A stretch of 64,000 nt of DNA from the NCBI RefSeq assembly GCF_006345805.1, contig NC_043004.1, forward strand, positions 11,284,001-11,348,000. Reading direction: 5' to 3'. The translations under genes and the position numbers were made by a program. The DNA is from Octopus sinensis. Taxonomy: Eukaryota. This document shows, piece after piece, positions 2,553 to 56,592 of this stretch. A model generated the notes under the pieces. That model had not been told where the DNA came from. It did no database searches and saw only the letters and a list, made by a program, of their open reading frames with translations. The stretch's first letter is position 1; the number at the start of each line of letters is the position of its first letter.

Positions 2553-4012
2553 TTATTATTATTATCTTTATTATTATTATTGTTATTATTATTATTATTA
2601 TCGTCGTTATCGTCGTTGTTGTTGTTGTTGTTTTGTGTCATCGTAAAACGTAAATAAATTCGTTTCACCAAGTGTTTTATCAAGAGGAAAGGGAGAACAC
2701 GAGTTGACTTATCTTCTTGTGTTCTTAAACGTATATCAGAGAGAAAAAAATTAAAAAATATGGTTCACTACTTTTATCCACGAATTGAATCGATTGTAAC
2801 ATATATTAATAGACTAAGCAAACCGCAAACCTTGCCAGCATCAAACAGGTTACTGCATATTAAATAAAGGGACTGGCGGTACAACGTAACTTCATTAGAT
2901 ATTTATTATTAGTCTACAACAGAGTACACGATTTTGTTTGAAGCTGAATGCTGGCCTCTGTTAAAAAAAAAACAACAAAAAAAAAAACACAATTTCAGCG
3001 TCGCTTACAAATAAAGTACATATTTATCTTGACAGATTCTAGTCTTATTCTATCTTCTTCAGATATTAATATAGCTGAATATAATAAAATTTAATATAAT
3101 ATAACAGCGTATTAAATTATCATTTAGTATATTACATTACATTGAATTAATATGTGAAATGTCAATTACAAATTATAACCATGCATATATATGAAATTAT
3201 ATATGTATAAAAATATTATTATTTCTGTGTATATGTGAGTGTAATGCTTAAAAGAACATATACATATTAACAAATAAATATTTGTGTATGTGTGTTTGTG
3301 TGTGAGTATGTTGACATGTGTGTATGTACGTGTGCGTGCGTATGTCTGTGCGTTTGTATGTGTGCATGTGAAATTGCTTATGAAGAAATGGGCTTACCAT
3401 TGCAGGCGAGTGCTGAAAGAAAAATGTGGTATGTATGTATATATGTATGTATGTATGTACGTATGTATGTATGTATGTATGTATGTGCGTGTGTGTGTGT
3501 ATGTATGTATGCTTGAGTGTATGTATATATGTTGTCGATAGGAATGAATCTATTTGTGTAAATATGCAAATACATATACAAACAATACATACAAATATAA
3601 TATATACATATACAAAAATGCAAGCGAAGAATTTCTGCTCTCCCCTTTCCACCAGCGTGGGTTAAAATCAGTAAACACTATGCTTTTTTCGGTAAAATCC
3701 AAGGCATTATATAGAGAGAGATGAATTATAATTTCAACAATTGAGGGTAAAATTAATTAATTAATCAATTCACCAAGTATTCAGTATGCAAAGGGACATT
3801 TAAGGCGAATTCAAATTATTACATTATATAAATGGGCTTAGTAAAATAAATTACTTTGCCGCATACTGAACTCATTAGAAATAGCAGCCAAAAAAAACTT
3901 TTCTAAAACTATTTCTAATACTTAAGAAAACCTCTCTCATATAGTGTTTGCTCAATTCAACTCACGGAAGTATGGGGGTAGAGACATTAAAAAATCAAAT
4001 GCAAAGGTTATT

Positions 4013-4065
4013 TGAGAACGTACGTTTCAAGATTAGTCGAAACCGACATTTCTATCATCAGCTCA
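4013..4065 (-). ncRNA. Type I hammerhead ribozyme motif (C3-G8 core)
   Basis: Minus strand: UGAG-CUGAUGA-[stem II with GUCG/CGAC]-GAAAC-GUAC-GUU-CUCA. Stem I is UGAG/CUCA; stem III is the palindrome ACGUACGU. Confidence 0.75.
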
Positions 4066-4698
4066 GAACTCCCTGGTTTGGATTTGAAAACACTGAAAGT
4101 GGGAGCATACCCTTTCGGCTTCTTCTCGCTTCTGAAGATCTGCTCGACACTAACAGTACCAACAAACTCAAAACTGCAAGCGAAGAATTTCTGCTCTCCC
4201 CTTTCCACCAGCGTGGGTTAAAATCAGTAAACACTATGCTTTTTTCGGTAAAATCCAAGGCATTATATAGAGAGAGATGAATTATAATTTCAACAATTGA
4301 GGGTAAAATTAATTAATTAATCAATTTCACCAAGTATTCAGTATGCAAAGGGACCATTTAAGGCGAATTCAAATTATTACATTAATAAATGGGCTTAGTA
4401 AAATAAATTACTTTGCCGCATACTGAACTCATTAGAAATAGCAGCCAAAAAAAACTTTTCTAAAACTATTCTAATACTTAAAGAAAACTCTCTTCATATA
4501 GTGTTTGCCTCAATTCAACTCACGGAAGTATGGGGGTAGAGACATTAAAAAATCAAAGCAAAGGTTATTTGAGAAATTATTCGCTTGCATTTTTGAGTTT
4601 GTTGGCACTGTTAGTTTCGAGCAGATCTTCAGAAGCGAGAAGAAGCCGAAAGGGTATGCTCCCACTTTCAGTGTTTTCAAATCCAAACCAGGGAGTTC

Positions 4699-4751
4699 TG
4701 AGCTGATGATAGAAATGTCGAGTTTGACTAATCTTGAAACGTACGTTCTCA
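4699..4751 (+). ncRNA. Type I hammerhead ribozyme motif (C3-G8 core)
   Basis: TGAG CTGATGA TAGAAATGTCGAGTTTGACTAATCTT GAAAC GTAC GTT CTCA; predicted cleavage after GUU at 4747. Confidence 0.75.
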
Positions 4752-5255
4752 AATAACCTTTGCATTGATTTTTAATGTCTCTACCCATAACTTCCGTGAG
4801 TTGAATTGAGCAAACACTATATGAGAGAGGTTTTCTTTAAGTATTAGAAATAGTTTTAGAAAAGTTTTTTTGGCTGCTATTTCTAATGAGTTCAGTATGC
4901 GGCAAAGTAATTTATTTTACTAAGCCCTTTTATATAATGTAATAATTTGAATTCGCCTTAAATGGTCCCTTTGCATACTGAATACTTGGTGAAATTGATT
5001 AATTAATTAATTTTACCCTCAATTGTTGTTGAAATTATATTCATCTCTCTCTATATAATGCCTTGGATTTTACCGAAAAAAGCATAGTGTTTACTGATTT
5101 TAACCCACGCTGGTGGAAAGGGAGAGAGCAGAAATCTTCGCTTGCATTTTTGAGTTTGTTGGCACTGTTAGTGTCGAGCAGATCTTCAGAAGCGAGAAGA
5201 AGCCGAAAGGGTATGCTCCCACTTTCAGTGTTTTCAAATCAAAACCAGGGAGTTC

Positions 5256-5308
5256 TGAGCTGATGATAGAAATGTCGAGTTTGACTAATCTTGAAACGTA
5301 CGTTCTCA
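5256..5308 (+). ncRNA. Type I hammerhead ribozyme motif (C3-G8 core)
   Basis: Same motif as 4699-4751, 557 nt downstream; predicted cleavage after 5304. Confidence 0.75.
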
Positions 5309-6114
5309 AATAACCTTTGCATTTGATTTTTTAATGTCTCTCCCCCATACTTCCGTGAGTTGAATTGAGCAAACACTATATGAGAGAGGTTTTCTTTAAG
5401 TATTAGAAATAGTTTTAGAAAAGTTTTTTTTTTCGCTGCTATTTCTAATGAGTTCAGTATGCGGCAAAGTAATTATTTTACTAAGCCCTTTTATATAATG
5501 TAATAATTTATATATATATATATATATGTATATATAAACATACACATATATATATATATATATGGTATATATATACAGATATATATATGTGTATATGTAT
5601 GTGTATGTATATATATATGTGTGTGTGTGTGTTTATGTACGTACAAATATATTGACACATGGCATCATAAACGCTTCCATTATTTAACCTTGATATTTGG
5701 CTCTTTTTATGTCTCCGTATTTCAATTAATTCTGCGCCACATTTAACAGTATTTAAATTGACAGTTTTCTTTCTCCATCTCATTCCCATTCTCTTTTAAA
5801 AAGATCTTTTTCAGTAATTTTTCATTTTCTATTTCAACATTATCGGCTGTATCGATTAGGTTTGGCTCGTCGATATACGCGTGTGGATATGTTTGTACGC
5901 GTGTTTGTACGTGTGTGTTTGCGAGTTTGTTTCTGTGTATGTAGGTATATATATATATATATATTCGTGTGTTTGTCTATGCAAATATGTATACTGATAT
6001 AAACTTTACACGTATGACTGTATGTCTTTTTTATTTTCATACAGAGTTGTATAAATACATATAGTTATACAGTGTGACATGTGACCCGGCTTTTTGAGAG
6101 AGTGAATGAAGGAT

Positions 6115-6150
<36 letters not shown>

Positions 6151-6535
6151 TGAGAGAGAATAATTCTGTGGAAAGATTGATTACGTGAAGCGAGATGAGA
6201 GTCAATTGAAAATCAACAGGGAAAGAAAGAAACAGATAAAAAGAAGTGGTGGGGGACTGTAAGCAATTGAAAGTTAATAAACTCAATAGCTATCTAAGCA
6301 ACTACATCTCTGGTGTTTAGCCATTTCGAAATCTTAGAAGTGATACGTTTTATAAAAGCACTGCAAGAATATATATATCTCGTTTGATGACTTTAAAGAG
6401 TTCAGCAGTGAATTGTGAAAATGTTCCATAAGTCATTTGGGAGATTGTCGGAGCTTTTGTTCCAGCTTACACTTTATAACAACCAAAGAATACAGCCTCC
6501 CCAAAATTGCTGGGAGATATATACATACATATATA

Positions 6536-7034
6536 CCGTAAATCCTCAAGTATAATCCGCATTTTTTCTCCAAAATTTAAGGGTCAAAATCCCTAGTGCG
6601 TTCCATATACGAGGTTAAAAATGAAAACTACTTTCTAAGCAATGTCTGAGTCTCTATCTGCTGTCCGGCAATGTTTGTGATGTCGGGCGCGAAAATACCT
6701 TAAGCTAAGCCTGAAAGCAATGAAGTCATAAAGGAATCATCCATAACTTGCAGAAAACAACATTTATTACACATTATTACTGTTATTTCTTTATTTTCTG
6801 CAAACAAAATGCACAAAAAAGCTACACGTTTGCATTATGTTATATATACAATAATAATAAAGGACATTACCGTATACAGTTTTACAAACCAAGGACGTTA
6901 TAACAATCACCTTGACTCAAGTTAGAGAAGGGGTGCGTATTATACACAAGGTTTAGGTTTTTCAGAAGTACACACCCCCCTAAAAATCACCTGCGTATTA
7001 TACTCAAGGGCGGATTATACTCGAGGATTTACGA
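6536..7034. mobile_element. pogo/Tc2-type MITE
   Basis: TIRs CCGTAAATCCTCAAGTATAATCCGC / GCGGATTATACTCGAGGATTTACG(A), TA on both sides, no coding capacity. Confidence 0.8.
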
Positions 7035-7054
7035 TATATATATATATATATATA

Positions 7055-8316
7055 CACTACTATCCCAAAGTTTAAGAAAGCTTACAAAAAATTGTTTCAA
7101 AGTGGAATTTTTAGTTCAATGCCATCGATTTAGATAATCTGTTTGTATAAAAATATGGAATAACATGCTGCATAACATTTGGGTTTTATTCGATAAGGAA
7201 TAACACTATTTATAGATAATTTATATGCAAATAATTTTATTTCTTGACAACAAACCTATTTGGGAATGTTGTCGAAAACATTTTAGCGTCCTCTTGTTGG
7301 CAACATTGCAATACATTTAGATTATTTCCATTTCTTATGTGCTGCCAGTTGAGATAACATCACTTAATGACTGCGTTAACTGTTTTATTGTTTCTTTCAG
7401 GTTCAGTTATAAAAAATATGTAAAGTTAGTGAAATTCCTAAAAATCAACCTGAATATGGGGAAAACGAGTCATTTATCACTTGAAAAGTGACAAAGCATT
7501 GTCACATTGCTGCCCGTCTAAATGGCCATTGCACTGTCAGAAAACCACTGCTTTCACCTCTGAGCAATCGTAAGCGAATCATATGGGCCAGAAAACACCA
7601 AACCTCGACCGTTAATCAATGGAAGCGACTTCTCTGAGCTGATAAATCAACGTTTGAAATCTTCGGATCCCGGCGTAGAATTTATTTAAAGTGAAGAATC
7701 GGTGTACAGCTGACTCCTAAGTGTATAGTTCCAACTGTAATTCGTGGTGAGGGAAGTGTGATGATCGGGTGTGTTTTGCAGGGAATAGTGTTGAGGATAT
7801 TCATCGTGTAACAAGAATATTGAACCAAAACGGTTATCACTCTATCCTCTAGCATCATGCCATTCTATCCGGGATGAGGCTGATCAGTGATAATTTCCGG
7901 CTGATGCAAGATAACGATACTAAACATATTTCTAACCTATGCAAAAACTATTTACAGTAGAAAATGGATAATAAAATGTTGACTGTAATTGAATGGCCAG
8001 CCCAATCCCCCGATTACAATACCCATCGAAATTGTGTGAGAAGAATTGGAAAGCAGAATCAAAAAGCGACAACCAGCGAATATTTGCTTTCATTGGTCGA
8101 AAGAATGCCCAGATTATGCTGAGCTGCGATCAAGGCCAAGGGCGGATATTTCGATGAGTTTTTCTCTGATTTTTCAGTTTTGTTTAGTTGCTGAGTTATG
8201 TCATCCAATGAAAGTAAATGTATATTAATGAAATATTTCTCCAGAATCTCTCAGTTGTTACCATTTTTTTTTTTTCAAAATTAGCTTAAGTGAGCTTAAA
8301 ATTTCGGATAGTAGTG
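7055..8316 (+). mobile_element. Decayed Tc1-family transposon
   Basis: TIRs CACTACTATCCCAAAGTTTAAG / CTTAAAATTTCGGATAGTAGTG with TA flanks and an internal transposase pseudogene. Confidence 0.85.
7456..8150 (+). pseudogene. Tc1 transposase pseudogene
   Basis: Pieces MGKTSHLSLEK*, RKPLLS...KRIIWARKH...QWKRLL*ADKSTFEIFG, MQDNDTKH and WPAQSPD..PIE, with stops, frameshifts and an N-terminal deletion. Confidence 0.85.
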
Positions 8317-10375
8317 TATATATATATATATATACATGTGTGTGTTTCTTTGGTTTTTATTTTTATGTCTTTGTTCGGCAGATATTCTAGCCGGTTACTA
8401 GCCAAATGACAAAGATCTTTTGTTTGAGTGAAGACAGCTTTGTATCTGCAGAATTTAAATGTGTACCTCCTCCGTATGGATCGAGAAATTGCCTTGGTAG
8501 ACTGTTTAAGCGACGATATCATATGTAGTGTCTTGCAGATATATTTCTAGTGCTATTTATGGTGTGTGTGATATCATCCACATTGGTATGTTACAATCGA
8601 CATTTTATTTCAAGTCGTGGAAGTCCACAGCCAGGCTAATTCTCATCTGGTGATCATGTATTTAGTATTACCACCAGTTCTTGGATTGCAAAGGCATTGC
8701 TTTCTTGGTGCGATATGATGTACCTTTCCTTTGATCAGAAGAGGTTACTATATCTGTCAATGTAGCTTATGGGATGTGATTCTATGCATAATCTTCACTA
8801 GAACGAGGAATGGTTCTCTTCTAAGATTCTATTTCATGAAATCAGTGCTGTGATATCTGGTGCACATATAAGCTAAAAGTACTCGTTCAGGAGATTTCAC
8901 CTAATTTCAGTAATGTTATTACCATTACTATCGTATCGAATATTCACGCGAAGTACTCTCTTCTCTCTTTGCTGTTCAGTCGGTGTTGTCTAAATTACAT
9001 GATGCGAAAATTAACAGCCGTCCGAGCTAATGTTCTACTCATACCTCCATCCCTTCGTTTCGCTCTTGTCTTCATGAGTCCTTCAAGCAACTGAAATAAC
9101 TGCTCAGTAAATCTTTGTTGAAATGGCTGAATATTCCACAGACACATGCAGACTTGATATAACCTTTATGCAGACTCACAGTAATACAACGTGTAACAAA
9201 GCTGGTCTTTTGCAATCAAAGGTAAACTTCATTGTGCAGACTTCAACGCGGTTTCTGTCTGGCTTAGGGCCAATGCCGATTTCATTGTCTATTGATAATT
9301 TTACTCTAACACTTCGTAGAAAAATTCTAATTTTGACTGCGATGCGACATATGTACAGTACAAAGTGGGTCGTTTTAGTCATCAAAACTTGTGATTTGGG
9401 AAAATCGCCAATGCATGGTTGTATTATGTGCATGTGTTTTTGACTTATGTTTGCATATTTGGAGTATTGTATGCGTAAGTGTGCTTCCAATTGGATGTAT
9501 ACCGGCTTTTCGCTGTACGCGATTACCGTTAGGTCGACCAGGACAAACCGTTACATGGCAGGATCATCAATAACAAAACTGTGTTCTCAACTGGGTTGTC
9601 TGGTGAAAATTATTGCTAAGAAGCTCGACATAACAGACACCAAGATATATTAAAATAATGGATAAAGCGAGGACGAAAATCTATCCAGTTGTAGAGCAAA
9701 GTGTTACAAATAATCGGGATGGGAAACTAGCTGGATCCTCAACTTCTAATCAGAAACCCCTGTAATGAAGAAGATTCCCCTTTTATAAAATTAAGGCTTC
9801 TGATGTTCTGAGACACTACTAGCTGTTCTGAAACACTACTATCTTCTAAATGTGTATCTTTTTACATTCACTACAACCAACTCTCTGTACAGGTACCTCC
9901 TCGAACCAGAACAGATATAAAGACCATTTAAACCTGTTTGTTGTCGTTTTGGAGGTCGGCGTATCATGCACAACTGCCAGAGGGAAAACTATTATTTCTG
10001 ATGATTCCTCGCTCGTGATGGCATACAGTTGTGATTCAATAGGCTGTAGGAGACGCGTTTAACGTATAGTCTATCTCCTGCGCTTAAAGAGGTGATGTCG
10101 GTATTTAAGAAACTAATTTCTTCGGACACGTGTGTGTATGTGTGTGCGTTTGAGTGTATGAGAGTGTGTGTATGTGTGTAAGTGCGTGTGCTAGAGACAC
10201 ATGCGTGTATGCGTGTGTGTATACTGATGGCTGGACAAAGGAAACGAAATGACCCTCAACACATTTTGTAAGAATTATATATATTATTTTGATATATATA
10301 ACAGGTTGACGTAGCGCCATATGGCTTAAACTTTCGTGTACTAATAAGACGCGCGATCGCAAAAAGCTAACTTTT

Positions 10376-10413
<38 letters not shown>

Positions 10414-10522
10414 GCACACGCTCGTACACATACATTCATGCGTATATATATTATATATGTATACAAGGAGAGAGGGAGAATTCAACCGTTGTATGTGTAT
10501 ATATATATATAACTTTATGTAT

Positions 10523-10860
10523 AGGAGACCCTCTTTCGTCGTCAATGACGATGGGATTTCACCTACAAAATTATCCTCCGGGGACGAGTCTGGGCAAGGT
10601 TGTTTGTGGAAGGCTAGCAGTCACCCATGCATACCAACCTTCCCTCTCCACATCACTGATTTTATCCAAGGGAAACGCAAAAGCCGATACAACTTGGCAC
10701 CAGTGATGTCGTAACTGATTTCTACAGCTGAGTTAACTGGAGCAACGTAAAATAAAGTGTCTTGCTCAAGGACACAACACGTAGCCCGGTCCAGGAATCG
10801 AACTCACAACCGCACGACCGTAAGATCGATGCTCTAACCACTGAGCCATGCTCCTTCACT
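10523..10860 (-). mobile_element. tRNA-derived SINE with CORE-like segment
   Basis: Minus strand: box A TGGCTCAGTGGTTAGAGC, box B GAGTTCGATTCC, then GTGTCCTTGAGCAAGACACTT. Relatives at 33445-33827 and 40885-41092. Confidence 0.75.
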
Positions 10861-10892
10861 ATTATGCATAATATACATATATATATATATAT

Positions 10893-11080
10893 AAGTAGCA
10901 AAAATATTTTTTCCTCTGTCTTCCCTTCTTGGGATCTTTCCTTCTCCTTGTTTCCGACGAAGAGCTCCGCTCGAAACGTTAAACCCCCTTCCCTTCTTTC
11001 CTGAGCGTCAAATAATACTTTAATTGTTCCACGTCCTCGCGTTGCTGTGTTTTTTTCTGTTTTCTTGTTTGGATTAACTT
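10893..11080 (+). mobile_element. Short (TA)n-embedded HHR-bearing element, copy 1
   Basis: Near-identical to 50060-50233; (TA)n flanks; contains the HHR-like motif at 10950-10984. Confidence 0.75.
10950..10984 (+). ncRNA. Minimal hammerhead-like motif (CCGACGA core, no stem III loop)
   Basis: GTTT-CCGACGA-A-GAGC TCC GCTC-GAAACGTT-AAAC. Stem I GUUU/AAAC, stem II GAGC/GCUC, palindromic AACGUU. Confidence 0.6.
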
Positions 11081-11114
<34 letters not shown>

Positions 11115-11351
11115 ATATTATATATGTATAGGTATATACATATATATATATATATATATTATATGTGTGTGTATATATACATATATATGTATGTATGCGT
11201 TTATGCATACATACAAGGGTGTGTATGGAAGGAGAGAGACTGGCAAACAAGCAAACAGGCTAAAAAGAGACTGACTGACAGACAGGGACAGACAGACATA
11301 TATATACAGAGAAATATAAATTCAACGCAAATACTTATACAAATACACACT

Positions 11352-11402
<51 letters not shown>

Positions 11403-11893
11403 TACCATGTTATTTTGAGGCTGATTATCGTTATTATTTTCTTGGTAAATAATCATAGTGTAATGACCAACAGAACGAAATTGTTGCAATTACATTTATT
11501 TTAATATTTATCAAAAATTCTATTTTTCTAATCTCTGAATTAATTAATAGATTGGATCTCGCTTTCAGACCAAGGACATTAGGCCAGGACTTTGTTGCGA
11601 TCGATTCTTCATTCCCGGGGACATTTGTGTTTATCGAACTTATTTTTGAACTCTCCTATATAATTAAACGATTGGTTGTTTAATTATTATTAGTCTAGGA
11701 ATAAGGAGATTACAATTAAAAGTGTTTGGAGTGGCTGGAAGTAAAGAACACCAGATGAACTATCTGACACAATTCCGACGACGATGTTTTTCTACAACCA
11801 GTATTGAAGTCCAGCGCCGCAAACAACTTTATAATTTAGTTTTTACCGAGTCAATAATCACCCCACCACACACACACACGCACATACACACAA

Positions 11894-11945
<52 letters not shown>

Positions 11946-12204
11946 GTATGTGAGTATACATGTATATGTTCATATATATACACACGCACATATATATGTA
12001 TATATATATATATATATATATAAACTTCTTTTAAGTTGTATTAGTTGAACAAAAGCCGACAGTGTCATTTGTTACATTTGAAAAATATGTTTATACGTCT
12101 ACTTTGTAAGGTTGCATGTATCACAACCCAATGCCCTGTTCCCTGAGTTCACATTTGAAGGGCCTTTAATAGTAAATAAAGCGTTTAACACTTATAATAT
12201 ACAA

Positions 12205-12352
12205 GTTCACGACTTCAAATTCCGCTGAGGTCGACTTTGCCTTTCAGTCTTATGGGGTCAATAAGTTAAGTACCAGTTGCGCACTGGGGTCGATCTAATC
12301 GACTGGCGCCCCTCCCCCAAAATTTCGGGCCCTGTGCCTAGAGTAGAAAGGA
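12205..12352 (+). mobile_element. SINE fragment (Nin-like domain)
   Basis: TTCAAATTCCGCTGAGGTCGACTTTGCCTTTCA...AAGTACCAGTTGCGCACTGGGGTCGAT, shared with the copies at 17527, 20366, 23937 and 55380. Confidence 0.7.
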
Positions 12353-12593
12353 ATATACAAGTTACCAGTTCTCCTGAGCTGCGGTATATGATGTGTATAT
12401 AAATAGATTGTGAAATTGATTCTAAGGGATTGCTCAAGTTGATGTACACTCATTTGATGAAACCCAAATAAGGGTCGAAAAGTTATTTTTTTACACTCTG
12501 CGGAGAAAGCAATAATTTGACATTTCTGGATGTCTATATGTGTATATGATTTTGTATGTATGTATATGTGCATACACACTCACACTTAACCAC

Positions 12594-12810
12594 TTAACCA
12601 CTATGGAAGATGCCCGTGTGTATATGGCATAGTGATTAAGAGCGCGGATACTAACCCCAAGATTCCGAGTTCGATTCCAAGCAGTGACCTGAATAACAAT
12701 AATAATAATAACATCGGGAAAATACCTTAGGAATGAGAATCCGGGTTCATAGTTCATCTAGGACACCTGATGAAGGCTGGAGAGTACATCAGCCGAAACT
12801 TTGTATTAAT
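12594..12810 (+). mobile_element. tRNA-head + hammerhead composite element
   Basis: Box A TGGCATAGTGATTAAG (12625), box B GAGTTCGATTCC (12667), then ACAC-CTGATGA-A-GGCTGG..TCAGCC-GAAAC-TTT-GTAT (12763-12806). Confidence 0.6.
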
Positions 12811-13656
12811 AAATTTGTGGTTTATACTAATTCGTTCAAAAATTCTCCTAAAGTAATCGAGTTTTTCGCTCAGCGTCGTGAGTTCGAGAGTTAGAGTAAT
12901 TAGCTTTCTCTCAAGAGCTTGGTGTGAAAATTTGCCATAAAGAATTTGTGAAGTGTGATCTTATTATTCCCCGAACATTTTATTATCATGCTTAACCATT
13001 CAATATGGCGACACAGAGTGTTGATATTTTCTTCAAGTTTTGTTTTCCATTTGCGGTGATTTCATTTAGTAATTTCATTACTATGTTTACTTCAGATTTT
13101 TCCTAGGTATTCTTTGATTGATAGCAGGTGTGTATATTAAGGTATTTATATTCCGGTAATTAGCGTCGCATGAATCCATGTGTTCCCCAGCGTCATCGTC
13201 GATAACTTTCATCATTAGAGCAGTTAGACATTTCATTCATCTTGTTGAAAATATCCTGTTTCTCAATGATAATTTCCAAAAGGTAAACAATTGAACTAAG
13301 CAATATCAATTTTTATCTAGCTACTTATTACACTTCAATCAAGCGTTCTTTTACACAAATAAGGAATGGCAATACCTAGGACATTTTTAAGGACCACGAA
13401 GACTCATAGGACAACAGACGGAAACTATACTAACTTGGCTGAGTACATGCTGTAGAGTGGACTCTGTTAAGGGTGCTCAATGACATAGCAGTGTTTTTTA
13501 AACCGTAAGATAGTTTGTCTATTACTAAAGTACATGAAAAATCGATGTTCAAAACCAATAACACAAACAAATAATCATGTTATAACAATCCTTAAATTTC
13601 CTACTAGCATCGCCACGAGAAACTACCGCCACCAATACTACCATCACCGATATCAC

Positions 13657-13688
<32 letters not shown>

Positions 13689-14988
13689 CGTTATTAAACT
13701 GCATGTAATGGCCTCCATCGAGTATTGGTCGTTTTAATGACTAACCTTCTGTGGTTGAATTGCGAGGTAGTTTAATGTGGCTGCAGGTTATTCTGCCGGC
13801 ACACGCCAACCGGTTGACTTCAGATGACCTCACTATTCTGTTTAACACAGTTAATTTCGGTGAAGCCTATAAAGATATCCTTAATAGCGTTAATCTATTT
13901 AGTCATAATGGCTATTTCTGCTTGACTCAGTGACAGCTATATGATGTAGCCGTTAATCGGAGACGATTAGAAAATAACAATGCAATACTAATTATACCTC
14001 CACCCACACTGCCAATACTTGTTATCTTTTTAATTCATTCGTTTAATCTTTTATTCATTCAAGTAGTCCGTCATTATTTCCACCCTGTTTTATCATCTAC
14101 GATTTTTTAATAATAATCTTTATGTTCACGATCGTGTTAGTACCACAAAGCGAAATGTATGATAAAAACAGTATTGCTGTTTCAATCCTTAGTTCGATCG
14201 CAATTCTAAATTATCTTCCCTTACTTATTTGTTAACATCGAGGGACTTAAATCTTCACTTGACTCTCTTTTCTGATAACAGTAAAGAAAGGGAAAGAAAT
14301 ATAAAAGAGCAAGACTGTATGATTCAAATCATCCGCTTTGAAAGTACATAGGTTCGGGTTCAAACGTATTGTTACGCATTTTGAATTAAAGTTTTGTCTT
14401 ATAGCCTTGGACTGACTCAAGTCTGGTGAATGAAAATGGGTAGACACAATACGCATTGGAAGCTTGCGAATGTATTAGCAATTATCCTGAGCGCTCGACA
14501 TCGTCCAATGCACGTTTTGCCTCACTCCTGAGAAACTTTAAATTAAGCCCCTCTGTTGCAATGTTTCGGGCTAGGTCTTTGGCCTGTAGTTAACTTTCTC
14601 CCTTGAACCCACTCGCTTTGCAGACTCCAAAAATGGCCACGAGCGCTTGATTAATCCATTCAACACTACAAAGAAATTTGATAAGCTTCATTATAATTAA
14701 CCAATGGGTATCAACGAATCAGCCGATAAATCAATTGCTTATAACTTGTCAGCAACACTGTGTTGCCCATGTCCAACATACTTATTTTTTTCATGCCTCA
14801 TTGCATTTCGCTACGCGTTGATAGCATATGGGAAATGATTCGGTGCTGTAAAATGCCACACGAAATTAAATTGGCATCTATTTCGTTACTTTGTAGTGTG
14901 AAGCTGACATGTGTTAATGACCATAGACCACGAAGGAAATACATTACAACCATTTTAAATATATTTATCTCGCGTTACTAAAGACACA

Positions 14989-30466: not shown

Positions 30467-30497
<31 letters not shown>

Positions 30498-30503
<6 letters not shown>

Positions 30504-30885
30504 AATAGTAAAAAGTGAAAAAAACTACAGAAGGCTTAAAGGTTAAAATATATATATATTTACGTCAATATGTCTGAAGAATATTAAATTTTTTTTTCTT
30601 ATAATGACATAGTTTTGAAGAAAGACCGGTTTCGCGTTTAGCTTTTCAAATTTCTTACGACGTTTTGTTTATCGAGATAAACATAACGTCGTAAGAAATT
30701 TGAAAAGCTAAACGCGAAACCGGTCTTTCTTCAAACTATGTCATTATAAAAAAAAATTTTAATATTCTTCAGACATATTGACGTAAATATATATATTTTT
30801 TAACCTTTAAGCCTTCTGTAGTCTTTTTCACTTTTTACTATTTTCTATATATTCAACCACTTGCTTTCACAAACCAACTTTCTTA
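30498..30885. mobile_element. Palindromic (fold-back) Penelope-type pLTR fragment with U3-A8 hammerhead in both arms
   Basis: ~175-bp arms centred at ~30674. AAGAAA-T-TTGAAAA-GC TAAAC GC-GAAACCGGTC-TTTCTT at 30693-30731 (+) and 30618-30656 (-). Homologous to 56445-56600; (TA)n flanks. Confidence 0.75.
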
Positions 30886-34424: not shown

Positions 34425-34592
34425 TACGGGTGAATTCACAACGAAGACAGGTGGTGTAGACAACAAACAGATGTATTAGTATAACGTTCGGGAATTGAAA
34501 TAGTCTTTAACGTTTCGAGCCTACGCTCTTCCACAGAAAGGAACACAGAAAGAAACAAGGAGAGAAAATAAAGAATGTGTAGTGGCTAGCGA
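34425..34592 (-). mobile_element. Short microsatellite-embedded element with minimal HHR-like motif (CUGUGGA core)
   Basis: Minus 34505-34540: CTTT-CTGTGGA-A-GAGC GTAG GCTC-GAAACGTT-AAAG. A related decayed copy lies at 42610-42712. Confidence 0.6.
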
Positions 34593-34821
34593 CATACATA
34601 CATGCATACATACATACATACATACATACATAATACATACATACATACATACATACATACATACATAAATACATACATGCATACATACATATATGTAAGA
34701 GTAAACAAGAGAGACAGAGACAGGCAGAAACAAGGAAAATGCCACTTGTATTTGAACACTATACAAATATTCTTTAAAAAGAACTTTCCTTTTAATTTTT
34801 CTAAATTTAATTATTTAATTG

Positions 34822-34863
34822 TTACAGTTGAAAAAGTCTTAATGACTGAAACCGGTAATGAAA
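34822..34863 (+). ncRNA. Hammerhead motif with U3-A8 core
   Basis: TTACAG-TTGAAAA-AGTC TTAAT GACT-GAAACCGGTA-ATGAAA. Stem II 4 bp, palindromic ACCGGU, GUA triplet; stem I has two mismatches. Confidence 0.6.
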
Positions 34864-34972
34864 TGTTTTTTATAAAATTATTGTAGCATTTTCTATCTTG
34901 ACTGTTTTTCCATATATATCAACTTGTGTGTTTCCTTTCCTAATTATACATACATACATATATATATACAAT

Positions 34973-35315
34973 ACAATTGCAGCGTGGAAGGTGTTTATAA
35001 GCCATTTAAGAAACACACAAAAGCCGTTCGATTCACTTCAACATTTAAGTTTAATTTGTCAAAATAAGTAAGTTCTTCACTTTTGCGAGGGCCTCTTTAT
35101 TTTAAGAGATGCAGCACGGATTTTTGTCAGTGAACAGGTCGCGGATTTTAGCGACGAAAATATTTTGACAAATTAAACTTAAATGTTGAAGTGAATCGAA
35201 CGGCTTTTGTGTGTTTCTTAAATGGTTTATAAACACCTTCCACGCTGCAATTGTTTTCGTTTCAGCACACGATCTCAGATCAAATTACTTGCTATGCGAG
35301 TACATCTCCGTAACA
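34973..35315 (+). mobile_element. Penelope-type fragment with ~93-bp inverted repeat and G3-C8 hammerhead
   Basis: 34973-35066 is the reverse complement of 35161-35254; HHR motif between the arms; TA flanks. Confidence 0.75.
35123..35172 (+). ncRNA. Hammerhead motif with G3-C8 core
   Basis: TTTGTCA-GTGAACA-G-GTCGC GGATTTTA GCGAC-GAAA-ATAT-TT-TGACAAA. Perfect 7-bp stem I, 5-bp stem II, palindromic AAUAUU. Confidence 0.7.
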
Positions 35316-35331
35316 TATATATATATATATA

Positions 35332-36964
35332 CAGTTGCGGCCAAAATGTTCAGAACGACATTGTTTTCGTCAGAAAAGTAGATATAAGTTTTTATCAAAG
35401 TTGTTTTAGTTTCAATAATTTTCACAGACAATAAACACAATATTAATTGTTATTGTCTGAGATTTTGGTGTAATTTGAGAGGATAATACAAAAGTTATGG
35501 ATGATTTAGGGATTTACCGCCAAACCCATGGGGGCCAAAATGATCAGAACGGTTGCTTTTACTCCGTGTTTTAGTATATTTAACCGGTGAACTGTAATGT
35601 TTTGAATTTGTGTACCTGACGGTTTTTTTACTAAACATTAGTAAGAATATCTGCAGTGTACTTTGTTAATATGATGCCACTTACTCCGTTACCAATTCGT
35701 CAGCAGATTATTAAGCTTCGAAAGAAGGATAATTTAAGTATTGGGTCTATTGCAAAGATTGTTAACAACTCAAAAAGTGTTGTTCACGGTATTCCTAAGG
35801 TCTTCGATGATTGTGGTTCATGTGAAGCAAGAAAGTCTACAGATAGGCCAAGAAAAACGACCAAGAGAGAAGATCGTGCTATGGTAAAGTTGGTTAAAAA
35901 GGACAGATTTAAAAGTGCTGCTGCTGTTTCTGGGGGAAATGAGCATTGTACTGAAGAAAACTTTATCTCGAAAAACTGTGTCTCGTCGTTTATTTGAACA
36001 TGACCTACAAGCAAGAGCACCTGCAGTGAAGCCACTGATCAGCTCCAAGAATAAAAAGTGTCGTCTTACCTTTGCAACCGAACATGTGTTGTGGTCTCAA
36101 GAAAAATGGCAAACGGTGCATTTCCGTGATGAATCTAAATTAATGTTATTTGGCTTAGATGGGAAAAGGTACGTTCGTCGAAAAGTAGGTGAAAAATTGT
36201 CGCCTAAATGCCTTAAGACTAGTGTTAAATTCGGTGGAGGAAGGAAGTGTCATGGTCTAGGGGGATGATATCTGGAGATGGTGTGGGCCCTTTGGTGCGA
36301 TTACATGGAAAAGTAAATGCAGGAGTTTATAAACAACTTGTAAAAGATCATGTTCTGCCTGTGCTGAGAAATTCAACTAAGCGACCACCCATATTCATGC
36401 AGGACAATGCTCCATGTCACAAGGCTAAGGTGGTCATGAACATTTTTAAGGCTGAAAAGATTATTGTTATGGATTGCCCTGCTCAAAGCCCAGATCTCAA
36501 TCCTATTGAAAATGTGTGGAATATTCTAGGAGAACGTTCGAAAGCCAGAAATCCTAAAACAACCGAGCAATTATGGAATGCCCTTCGGGAAGAATGGAAT
36601 ATCACCCAGCAAGAAATTGAAAATTTAATTTCCTCATGCAGTCGAAGATGTCAAAGTGTGATTGAAGCTACAGGGCTTCACACTAAATATCAAATAATTC
36701 CAGTATTCTCTGTCATTTTTGATTATTTTGTTATTTTTTTCAACTGTTCTGATCATTTTGGCCGCCATGGGTTTTGCAGTAAATCACTAAATCATCCATA
36801 ACTTTTGTATTATCCTCTCAAATTACACCAAAATCTCAGACAATAATAATTAATATCGTATTTATTGTCTGTGAAAATTATAAAATATAAAACAACTTTG
36901 ATAAAAACGTATACTTACTTTTCTGACGAAAACAATGTCGTTCTTAACATTTTGGGCGCAACTG
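35332..36964 (+). mobile_element. Tc1-family DNA transposon with long IR/DR-type TIRs (~220 bp)
   Basis: Ends CAGTTGCGGCCAAAATGTTCAGAAC / GTTCTTAACATTTTGGGCGCAACTG with TA flanks. GGCCAAAATGATCAGAAC is repeated at the inner end of each TIR. Confidence 0.95.
35671..36693 (+). pseudogene. Tc1 DD34E transposase, two frameshifts
   Basis: Three overlapping ORFs: HTH/RPRKTT.REDR; KPLIS...W..VHFRDESK; QDNAPCH-34 aa-NPIENVW...GLHTKY. The expected stop reads CAA. Confidence 0.93.
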
Positions 36965-41309: not shown

Positions 41310-42791
41310 CACTAAAGCAATACGTACAATATAGAAGACGAGCAAATGAAAGAGCCCAGATATAGTCGCCTGACTTTGTAGAAATAACAACCAACTCTTC
41401 ATCATAAGCTAGAATTACATTCATGGAAGTATAGTGCGCATTGGATAATATGGCCCTTCGTACACAGCTACCGAAAAAATGACTGGAAGGCCACAACTCG
41501 ACAGTCTGTATGAACTTCGGTTGATCTTTGGGTTAAAACAAGCAATAACAATAGAGAGAGCATTTAGGGCCTCACTCCTAAAAATATAAACCAAATATCT
41601 TTCAAATCACATCATAACGCCACGGAAATGTTTTGAAAGACGTTGTGCATAATGAGTGATTTGAAAGACATTGTGCACGTGTTCCTATGTCCGTAGCACA
41701 TATAAATAAAGGGGGCGGTCACGGCTGGAAGGTTTTCAATCACTGGTACGTTTGAACACAACTAAAATAGTAGTGGAGGCTGATGCGATTTGGTTGTGCA
41801 GGTGTAGTAGTAGTAGTAGTAGTAGTAGATGCGGAAGGGGAGAAGAAGAAGAAGAAAAAGAAGAAGAAGAAGATGAAGAAGAAGAAGAGGAATCCGATAC
41901 AGCTAGAATTCCAAAGCAAAGTGTTAAATAGCGTTAAATAAGCCCAGCAGGAGACATTCAGGTCAAATAACAGTAATATAATTCAATCTTGGCTGTCAAT
42001 CGAACAACGAGAAATGACTCGTGTCACACTGTTGAATTTTATGAATGCTGTCGATGAAATTGACCTAACGTGGAAGAAGACGATCGGGGAATCATAATAG
42101 GCACATCCCAGGGGGAGAGAGGGAAAGCGAGAGAGAGAGAGAGAGGGAGTGAGATAGCATTTAGGAGGCTTAATCTCCATCAATAGGCTATTCCCTTCAT
42201 GATCGAACACTGCGATCAAAACGCGAATTGTTCTCATACTGGTGAAACAAATGCAAGTAGCCGGTAAGGTTGAGCCATGACAAACAGTGTAAATTAAGGT
42301 GCCTCGCGTTACTCGTTCAAGGACACAACGTTCCCTAGCTGAAATTAATTACGTGGAAGTCAATGATGTTTTAGTATCTATACAGGCGGTGCCCCAGCAT
42401 GGACACAGACTGGAAATTAAAACAAAGAATATACAGGCGTGGCTGTGTGGTAAGAAGTTAGCCTCTCAACTATATGGTTCTGGGTTCATTCCCACAGCGT
42501 GGCATCTTGGGCAAGTGATTTCTACCGTGCAAAGGCCTTCTGAGTGGATCAGGTAGATAGAAACTGAAGGAATACCGTCGTATATAGTTAAAAATTACAG
42601 TATAATTAAAACCCGAAGATAGGTGTATAAACATGCAGGTGTATTAGTATGACGGTTGGGAAGGTGAGAAAGTCTTAAGTTTCGAGCCTACGCTCTTCAA
42701 AACAAAGGAACACACACATGCATATATACTTATCTATCTATCTATCTATTTATCTGTCTGTCTGTCTCTCTGTATATATATATATATATAT

Positions 42792-43343
<552 letters not shown>

Positions 43344-43719
43344 ATATATATATATATATATACAACTTATAAACAAGAGCAAAAGAAACTTATTCCTATG
43401 CAATATGCTGATAACAGACTTTTAAATCGTCAATTTCCACATATTATATACCCACTACAGAAATACACTGTACTGAGATCGGGAAGCTAGTCAACAGATT
43501 TTTTTTTTTTCAAGTACGTTATTTCTATATTGAATCAATTTCGGAATTAATCTCATAGATTTTTCCTCTTCAGTAGAAAATACGATAATATATAAATGAA
43601 ATACTTACATGCGCCCATGGAAAAAAAGCCGAAGCAAAATTCATGAGTACATATAAGTACCCCAGTTATATCTAAATATAAAAATCCTTGGTTAGACTCA
43701 GTACACGTGTGAAGAAGAA

Positions 43720-48500: not shown

Positions 48501-49065
48501 GAAATGACATAGGTGACATGGAGCACTTTCATACGTTAGTGATTGCATATTTATATCAGTTCTTATAACGATCTCATCATTGAAATTTTTTGTTGAAATG
48601 TTACGGTAGATGGGTAAAAGGAACGTCTAGAAATCGATTTTCGTTGAAAATGAAAGTAGAAGACGGGAAGTAGAAAAAGCAAGGAGTAAGAGGTTAACAA
48701 TGGAGTAGAAGAGAAAATGAGGAGCATATAATGAAAACACGCGAGAGAGAGAGAGAGAAAGAAAGAGAGGAAGCGTGGAGAGAATGAGTGCGCAACACAA
48801 GGAAACATTGAAGTGCGGAATGCTGAGTTGTATTCTCCCGCACATCTGTTACTATTTAAGATCAAGATGATGGCCATAAGCCTTGCTCTTTAAATATTCT
48901 ACTCAAATCATATTCAATATGCTACATGCATTTTCAATCAGAAGTATCTTTCTTTAGGACGCCTCCATTTGATAGACATCGGAAGAGGAATTCAACTATT
49001 CCCAACTGCCACCACGTATGTGAGTGTGTTTGTATGTGTGTGTGTGTGTGTGTGGTGTGTGTGTG

Positions 49066-49175
49066 TGAAACCAGTTAAAGCTTTAAATATATTAATATAA
49101 ATATTTTAACTATTCTCAGTGCATTTTCAACTTATATTATTCCTATATTCCTCCCTCTGATAAAATAACTTTGTT
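49066..49175 (+). mobile_element. Short pLTR-like fragment, related to 49890-50015
   Basis: GTGAAACCAGTT...TTTAAATATATTAATAT...AACTATTCTCAGTGCATT repeated ~830 bp downstream. The longer copy has a decayed HHR-like motif at 49871-49910. Confidence 0.55.
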
Positions 49176-49188
49176 ACACACACACCCA

Positions 49189-49489: not shown

Positions 49490-50012
49490 TGTATAAAATA
49501 TAATATAATATAATATAATATAAATATATATATATAGGGTAGAGAAATTAAAGACATCTGCCAGTGGCTAGCATGCATAAAATAGTCAATAGACAACATA
49601 TGTTTGAAATTACCCTATTTTTATAGGAAGCTCAATGTCTCAAATTAGTATTTGTTTTGAAAAGGATTTGATTGGTAGAAGATAGTCACAGTTAAGGCTG
49701 ATACGGTTCACTGAATATGTCCAAAGTATCAATGCTCCGAATTCTTTCTGTCAAGTGTTTGTAGAGAATGAACACATGATTAAGTTTAATACCTTTAGTA
49801 CGTTTCCCGCTACGACCGTGCCTTAGTATATTTTGCGCTTAAAAAGAATAAAAAAAAAGTTCTGCTTGAACTCTTTGAAAGTCAGTGTAAACTGTGAAAC
49901 CGGTTATTATAGGTTTAAATATATTAATATGAAATATTTTAACTATTCTCAGTGCATTCTCAACTTATATTTTTTCCTATATTCCTACCTGTGTTAAATA
50001 AAATAGCTTTGT

Positions 50013-50044
<32 letters not shown>

Positions 50045-50059
50045 ATCTCATGAGCACCA

Positions 50060-50228
50060 CCAGCAAAAATATTTTTTCCTCTATCTTCCCTTCTTGGGAT
50101 CTTTCCTTCTCCTTGTTTCCGACGAAGAGCTCCGCTCGAAACGTTAAACCCTCCTTCCCTTCTTCCTGAGCGTCAATAATACTTTAATTGTTCCACGTTC
50201 TCGCGTTGCTGTGTGTTCTTGTTTGGAT

Positions 50229-56370: not shown

Positions 56371-56441
<71 letters not shown>

Positions 56442-56553
56442 AAAAAGAGTGAATAAAACTACAGAAGATTTGTGTTATGTGGTTAAAGAATATATTTAAA
56501 TCGTTATGTTAGAAAAATGTTAGGCAATTTTGCGTATAGAAACATAGATTTTG

Positions 56554-56592
56554 GAGAAATAACCAGTTTCGTATTTTCTTTTCAAATTTCTC
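56554..56592 (-). ncRNA. Hammerhead motif with U3-A8 core
   Basis: GAGAAAT-TTGAAAA-GAAAATAC-GAAACTGGTT-ATTTCTC. 7-bp stem I; stems II and III are decayed. Confidence 0.6.

Follow-up and report, generated by a model that had tools for sequence, protein, structure and literature searches.

A U3-A8 hammerhead motif terminating a high-copy repeat

Positions 34822-34863 of the window, the whole stretch of 64,000 nucleotides of Octopus sinensis DNA that was analysed, very probably hold a decayed minimal type I U3-A8 hammerhead motif ending a high-copy repeat, likely a 5′-truncated Penelope-like terminal repeat. Position numbers within the motif follow the standard hammerhead scheme. The repeat, referred to as family A, is approximately 190 bases long, carries the motif towards its end and is a solo copy in the window. 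The features are as follows.

34733-34915 (+), family A repeat with the U3-A8 motif (high contig depth over 34734-34920 in three runs)
34822-34863 (+), U3-A8 hammerhead motif, minimal type I layout, read from the sequence
34822-34827 (+), stem I, 5′ strand, pairing with 34858-34863 (sequence)
34828-34834 (+), core U3 U4 G5 A6 A7 A8 A9, with U3 at 34828 and A8 at 34833
34835-34847 (+), stem II, 4 bp with a 5-nt loop (folding prediction and contig variants)
34848-34851 (+), GAAA (sequence)
34851-34856 (+), self-complementary stem III, ACCGGU (palindrome)
34857 (+), H17 = A34857, predicted cleavage nucleotide (sequence)
34858-34863 (+), stem I, 3′ strand, position 1.1 being 34858, decayed in the window copy

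A hammerhead core with the correct spacing and a Watson-Crick 3:8 pair was found at this site. The first-pass annotation had described it as UUGAAAA-stem II-GAAACCGGUH, and this layout was confirmed; the pattern TTGAAAA-N7-14-GAAACCGGTH gave 3 matches in the window, compared with a mean of 0.00 in 100 shuffles. Position 10.1-11.1 of family A is A-U or G-U instead of the usual G-C, and the extra nucleotide after A9, a common feature that is not obligatory, is absent.

Family A in public contigs

Public contigs were aligned at 80% likeness to 34700-35190, a stretch spanning family A and the neighbouring family C (see below). The contig evidence consisted of three runs, X1, X3 and X6, labelled as three organisms; 13,974, 11,284 and 4,653 records were aligned over this stretch in the runs labelled organisms A, B and C, and the raw-read run X23 contributed 0 reads. 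Part of 34690-35320 was present in 20 of the 24 listed public runs. The 5′ boundary of family A is uncertain, with 34700-34732 skipped in the contig-depth analysis. In other family A copies, (AT)n follows past 34919 (58 records in X3). Dividing the summed contig depth by the typical depth of a piece gave ratios of approximately 3,400-14,700 for family A and 16,000-38,000 for family C, which serve as a rough guide and not as copy numbers. The exact family A pattern had 0 matches in metagenome and viral contigs, and that of family C had 0 matches in metagenome contigs.

Within the core (34828-34834), no other letter reached 10% in the three contig runs, and U3 and A8 were the majority letters. 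UUGAAAA is, at this threshold, the consensus core of family A, and U3 and A8 are traits of the family instead of the result of decay from C3-G8. With neither C34828 nor G34833 at 10% or above in any of the three runs and no match to the pattern in the 100 shuffles, it is hardly credible that the motif matches by chance in AT-rich DNA or that a canonical C3-G8 motif decayed to U3-A8 at 34822, even though UUGAAAA is AT-rich, as is the window (GC 0.23-0.42 per 2 kb, with abundant microsatellites and transposon fragments), and the Rfam covariance models gave no hammerhead match at the 34822 motif up to E 10. The canonical motif at 4703 was likewise unmatched by these models, so the Rfam blank at 34822 carries no weight. 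Because Rfam misses these motifs, such repeats stay unclassified. Rfam microRNA matches, below the gathering score among the 150 of 220 matches listed, were rejected as hairpin or microsatellite artefacts.

Stem I of the 34822 copy contains two mismatches, G34827.A34858 and A34824.A34861. Both had been noted in the first-pass annotation and are present, but only G34827.A34858 represents decay. Position 34858 was C in 97.9, 99.6 and 99.9% of contig depth (X1, X3 and X6, respectively), which restores the pair with G34827, and the outer A.A mismatch, for which no alternative letter reached 10%, is common to family A. Among the other variants, 34835 was G in 5, 25 and 24% of contig depth, changing a stem II base pair from A-U to G-U, and 34860 was A in 15, 3 and 2%, breaking one stem I pair. 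Since many flanking positions were equally variant-free, the contig letters give a consensus and not a measure of selection.

A second, unrelated family with U3-A8

Family B, the other family with this core, comprises the following features.

30494-30852 (unstranded), one insertion of two head-to-head truncated copies, each ending in (TA)n (inverted repeat, arms 95% identical)
30693-30731 (+), U3-A8 motif with a 2-bp stem II and a one-base slip in stem I (sequence, descriptor)
30618-30656 (-), mirror copy of 30693-30731, not independent (inverted repeat)
56428-56592 (-), solo copy, approximately 70% identity to 30694-30852
56554-56592 (-), motif with a 7-bp stem I, a 1-bp stem II and a broken palindrome (sequence)

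The repeats at 34822 and 30693 had no similarity in blastn, in line with the earlier claim of a U3-A8 core in at least two families. The further sites cited with that claim do carry U3-A8 motifs; their independence did not hold. As mirror arms of one inverted repeat, 30618-30656 and 30693-30731 are one insertion, and the 56554 copy belongs to the same family. This reduces the four cited U3-A8 sites to three insertions, which belong to two unrelated families, A and B.

Family B is the weaker of the two, with a stem II of 1-2 bp and the slip in stem I. The 30693 motif is present as annotated and is weaker than was implied, its stem II having 2 bp and its stem I being slipped by one base. The outer stem I pair is G-C in the 56554 copy as against A-U in the 30693 copy. 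Family B has G-C at 10.1-11.1 without an extra nucleotide after A9, and its position 17 is C or U, neither of which is able to pair with U3.

Pairs at 3:8 in the window

A hammerhead descriptor allowing all 16 letter combinations at 3:8 gave 7 matches in the window, namely 3 C-G (4703, 5260 and, on the minus strand, 4061), 3 U-A (34828, 30700 and, on the minus strand, 30649) and 1 G-C (35130), with 0 A-U and 0 mismatched. Three Watson-Crick pair types at 3:8, as reported by the first-pass annotation, were all found. The mean in 150 block-wise dinucleotide shuffles was 0.71 descriptor matches, 0.23 of them Watson-Crick at 3:8. The descriptor leaves out the 56554 copy and motifs changed at positions 4 or 6.

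Since the seven matches fall in four families, the real sample size is four. The suggestion that natural covariation supports a real fold stands in part: the consensus and the dimer prediction (see below) support the fold, and the covariation comes from four independent families, not from at least four independent U3-A8 copies.

4697-4753 (+), canonical C3-G8 minimal hammerhead motif (descriptor), with more copies at 5260 (+) and 4061 (-)

The C3-G8 family forms a tandem and inverted cluster at 3843-5479 and has an 8-base palindromic stem III. Copies of this family with the downstream part only lie at 42910-43226.

A neighbouring family with G3-C8

The less familiar part of the locus is the neighbouring natural G3-C8 family (family C), which is very high-copy.

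34970-35315 (unstranded), family C insertion (inverted repeat; inversion joints among other copies)
34970-35066, inverted arm (inverted repeat)
approximately 35107-35257 (+), forward copy (sequence)
approximately 35258-35315, one-sided extension of about 58 bases, then (TA)n (sequence)
35123-35172 (+), G3-C8 minimal hammerhead motif (sequence, descriptor)
35123-35129/35166-35172 (+), stem I, 7 bp, perfect (sequence)
35130-35136 (+), core GUGAACA, followed by the extra G35137 (sequence)
35138-35142/35151-35155 (+), stem II, 5 bp, first pair G-C (sequence)
35156-35159 (+), GAAA, with H17 being U35165 (sequence)

No substitution reached 10% over 35107-35190 in the three contig runs, and loose ends of the contig records revealed other family C copies with a different loop II. 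In these runs the inversion joints differed from copy to copy. The 40 bases that separate the inverted arm from the G3-C8 copy (35067-35106) are nearly missing from other copies, their depth being approximately 180 compared with more than 1 million to either side. Family C has both G-C at 10.1-11.1 and the extra nucleotide after A9. Its palindrome consists of A-U pairs alone, giving a weak duplex (-2.0 kcal/mol) that the predicted dimer does not favour; this counts against activity, as does the G3-U17 pair predicted with a probability of 0.67 in the monomer.

No report of natural G3-C8 was found in the literature searched, and none appeared among the alignment rows available from the supplement of PMC4209133; Lunse et al. 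2017 and Przybilski and Hammann 2007 may bear on G3-C8. The same pair is known from engineered C3G/G8C hammerheads with partial rescue (PMC11167929, PMC9901934): according to the text available, the swap partly rescues cleavage of an anole element (PMC11167929), and in a mutational scan of a type III ribozyme only the G-C swap rescued 3:8, other double mutants being low (PMC9901934). Those are laboratory mutants, whereas the G3-C8 motif at 35123-35172 is natural and very high-copy.

Predicted folding and cleavage

In the family A monomer, stem II was predicted with pair probabilities of 0.95-0.99. The palindrome ACCGGU, with a predicted duplex energy of -8.3 kcal/mol, forms between two copies and not inside one. 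The window copy was predicted to fold with stem II plus a palindromic stem III shared with a second copy, and its stem I had a probability of 0.00; with the two majority letters, that of the family A stem I rose to approximately 0.78. In the minimum free energy structure of the majority-letter dimer, stems I and II were present and the palindromic stem III joined the two molecules, giving the helices of a double hammerhead. The earlier remark that the 34822 copy may be dead agrees with the predicted fold, and this copy, with stem I predicted to be unfolded, is most likely inactive.

The proposed mechanism concerns the parent element. Two motifs in its tandem transcript would pair via the ACCGGU palindrome to give a stable helix III and a double hammerhead, in which U3-A8 would take the role of the tertiary C3-G8 pair in positioning nucleotide 8. 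Cleavage after GUA (A34857) would depend on this dimer, be slow and probably be assisted by the protein of the element, cleavage of another Penelope-like element, that of the anole (Poseidon), having been shown to need its protein (PMC11167929).

In the majority-letter family A monomer, U3-A17 was predicted with a probability of 0.72. The rival reading is a hammerhead-shaped fold without cleavage, in which U3-A17 extends stem I and the motif is a protein-recognition or packaging element or a passenger. This pair and the G3-U17 pair of the family C monomer (0.67) speak for it, as do published systems: in the portions available, minimal motifs are described as cleaving weakly even as dimers and not as monomers (PMC4209133), and hammerhead cleavage of the anole element as dispensable for its insertion in vitro (PMC11167929). 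It is nevertheless rather unlikely, considering that the letter at position 8, A8 or C8, complements position 3 in each family, that 3:8 was Watson-Crick in 7 of 7 descriptor matches as against about one in three in shuffles, and that C17 or U17 of family B cannot pair with U3. Moreover, the folding energy model is unable to score the tertiary 3:8 pair.

Inhibition of the minimal hammerhead by G17 has been attributed to a proposed C3-G17 pair in the accessible text of PMC3884650, and family A may hold an equivalent 3-17 lock, since U3-A17 resembles that pair. A broader reading, put forward tentatively and considered doubtful, is that the genome contains a natural core-swap series in separate, hugely amplified Penelope-type families, including natural G3-C8, and that 3-17 pairing locks the ribozyme off until a protein or the dimer refolds it.

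Probable Penelope-like context of the repeats

Within the repeats, the distance from H17 to the repeat end is approximately 55 nt in family A and 120 nt in family B, and truncated copies in inverted or tandem arrangement occur in families B and C and in the C3-G8 family. Proximity to (TA)n is weak evidence alone, 43% of random window positions lying within 160 nt of one. The placement of the motif close to the 3′ end, the head-to-head inversions, the extension on one side only and the TA-rich ends of the present families agree with the description of Penelope-like insertions, (TA)n ends included, in the part of PMC8557442 consulted. Reverse transcription that started at the 3′ end and targeted TA-rich sites is the likely origin of the genomic copies, many of them truncated and inverted.

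It is improbable that a real hammerhead motif is carried here by another kind of repeat, whether a SINE, a MITE-like hairpin DNA element or a tandem non-LTR retrozyme. Two insertions do resemble long hairpins, and a Pfam scan of 132 ORFs near the motifs, made up of 13 longer ORFs and 119 out of 150 listed, gave 0 matches to an RT or GIY-YIG domain. The lack of a Penelope ORF match nearby counts against the Penelope-like reading as well; the short truncated copies would be too small to hold an RT-GIY-YIG ORF. The copies at 34822 and 56554 are solo and one-way, and the variable inversion joints of family C are unlike fixed terminal inverted repeats. In addition, 0 of the 109 arrays in the window had a period of at least 40, and ARAGORN detected 0 tRNA genes, a search that degenerate SINE heads would escape.

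Among the 132 ORFs, Pfam matched only a Tc1-type transposase (35888-36798), apart from two matches below threshold. The transposase match falls within a frameshifted Tc1/mariner-type transposase (HTH_Tnp_Tc3_2, DDE_3) at 35635-36801 (+), just downstream of the G3-C8 insertion.

Comparison with known hammerheads

The novelty implied for U3-A8 in the first-pass annotation did not survive. Natural U3-A8 hammerheads were reported in 2011 by Perreault et al. (PMC3088659), and U3-A8 minimal hammerheads of Penelope-like elements in 2014 by Cervera and De la Pena (PMC4209133). Since the core UUGAAAA had already been published for Penelope-like minimal hammerheads (PMC4209133), the U3-A8 headline is not new. 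As it stands, the present result is of little consequence, extending a published class by two families.

According to the text available of PMC4209133, Schistosoma mansoni has approximately 1,300 U3-A8 minimal motifs, those listed including UUGAUAAA and UUGAAAAA, and a motif with the core UUGAAAAA adjoins a Cercyon ORF. Like these motifs, that of the window has the type I layout, a short stem I, no stable monomeric stem III, a palindromic 15.2-16.2 region and the U3-A8 core, and copies are mostly solo, with opposite-strand pairs 100-700 bp apart. Unlike them, it has a palindromic insert of four bases (CCGG) instead of two; family A has A-U or G-U at 10.1-11.1, lacks the extra nucleotide after A9, has an H17 (A) complementary to U3, and is known here without a linked ORF.

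The U3-A8 hammerheads of PMC3088659 share the compensatory core pair of the window motif, and the text available gives no Penelope context and does not describe them as dimer-dependent repeat ends. U3-A8 is described there as active in vitro; when set beside PMC9901934, the evidence on its activity is mixed. The portions available of PMC6765202, PMC6466107, PMC6155905, PMC10085705, PMC13282606 and PMC6962438 contained nothing bearing on 3:8. Non-LTR retrozymes, as presented in the accessible text of bioRxiv 10.64898/2026.07.22.740005, are likewise small non-coding repeats with type I hammerheads and are proposed to derive from Penelope-like terminal repeats, but they are defined by tandem units, and the window is without such an array.

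If the G3-C8 family is truly unreported and cleaves, it would complete a series of naturally occurring compensatory swaps at the catalytic pair 3:8. Such a series would let one test whether Penelope elements are selected for cleavage or merely carry the motif.

Other hammerhead-like motifs in the window

The site 49875-49905 was considered as a third U3-A8 family and rejected, its position 9 being G and its 5′ stem I strand absent. A family of repeats that carry GAAACCGGUU and end in (TA)n, their upstream core half being incomplete, was observed at 49875-50014 (+) and 49064-49176 (+); the 49064 copy of this repeat starts just upstream of GAAA.

Minimal hammerhead motifs with the core CCGACGA (U4 to C) and an extra A are located at 10950-10984 (+) and 50115-50149 (+), with 92% identity. 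Partial CUGAAGA/CUGAUGA cores with stem II and GAAA, probably decayed, were seen at 43542-43579 (-), 12767 (+), 55947 (-) and 1276 (-). A minimal hammerhead-like motif with the core CUGUGGA (A6 to U) at 34505-34540 (-) has as relatives the 10950 motif and a repeat at 42622-42714. The region 34430-35315 holds three different hammerhead-bearing repeats.
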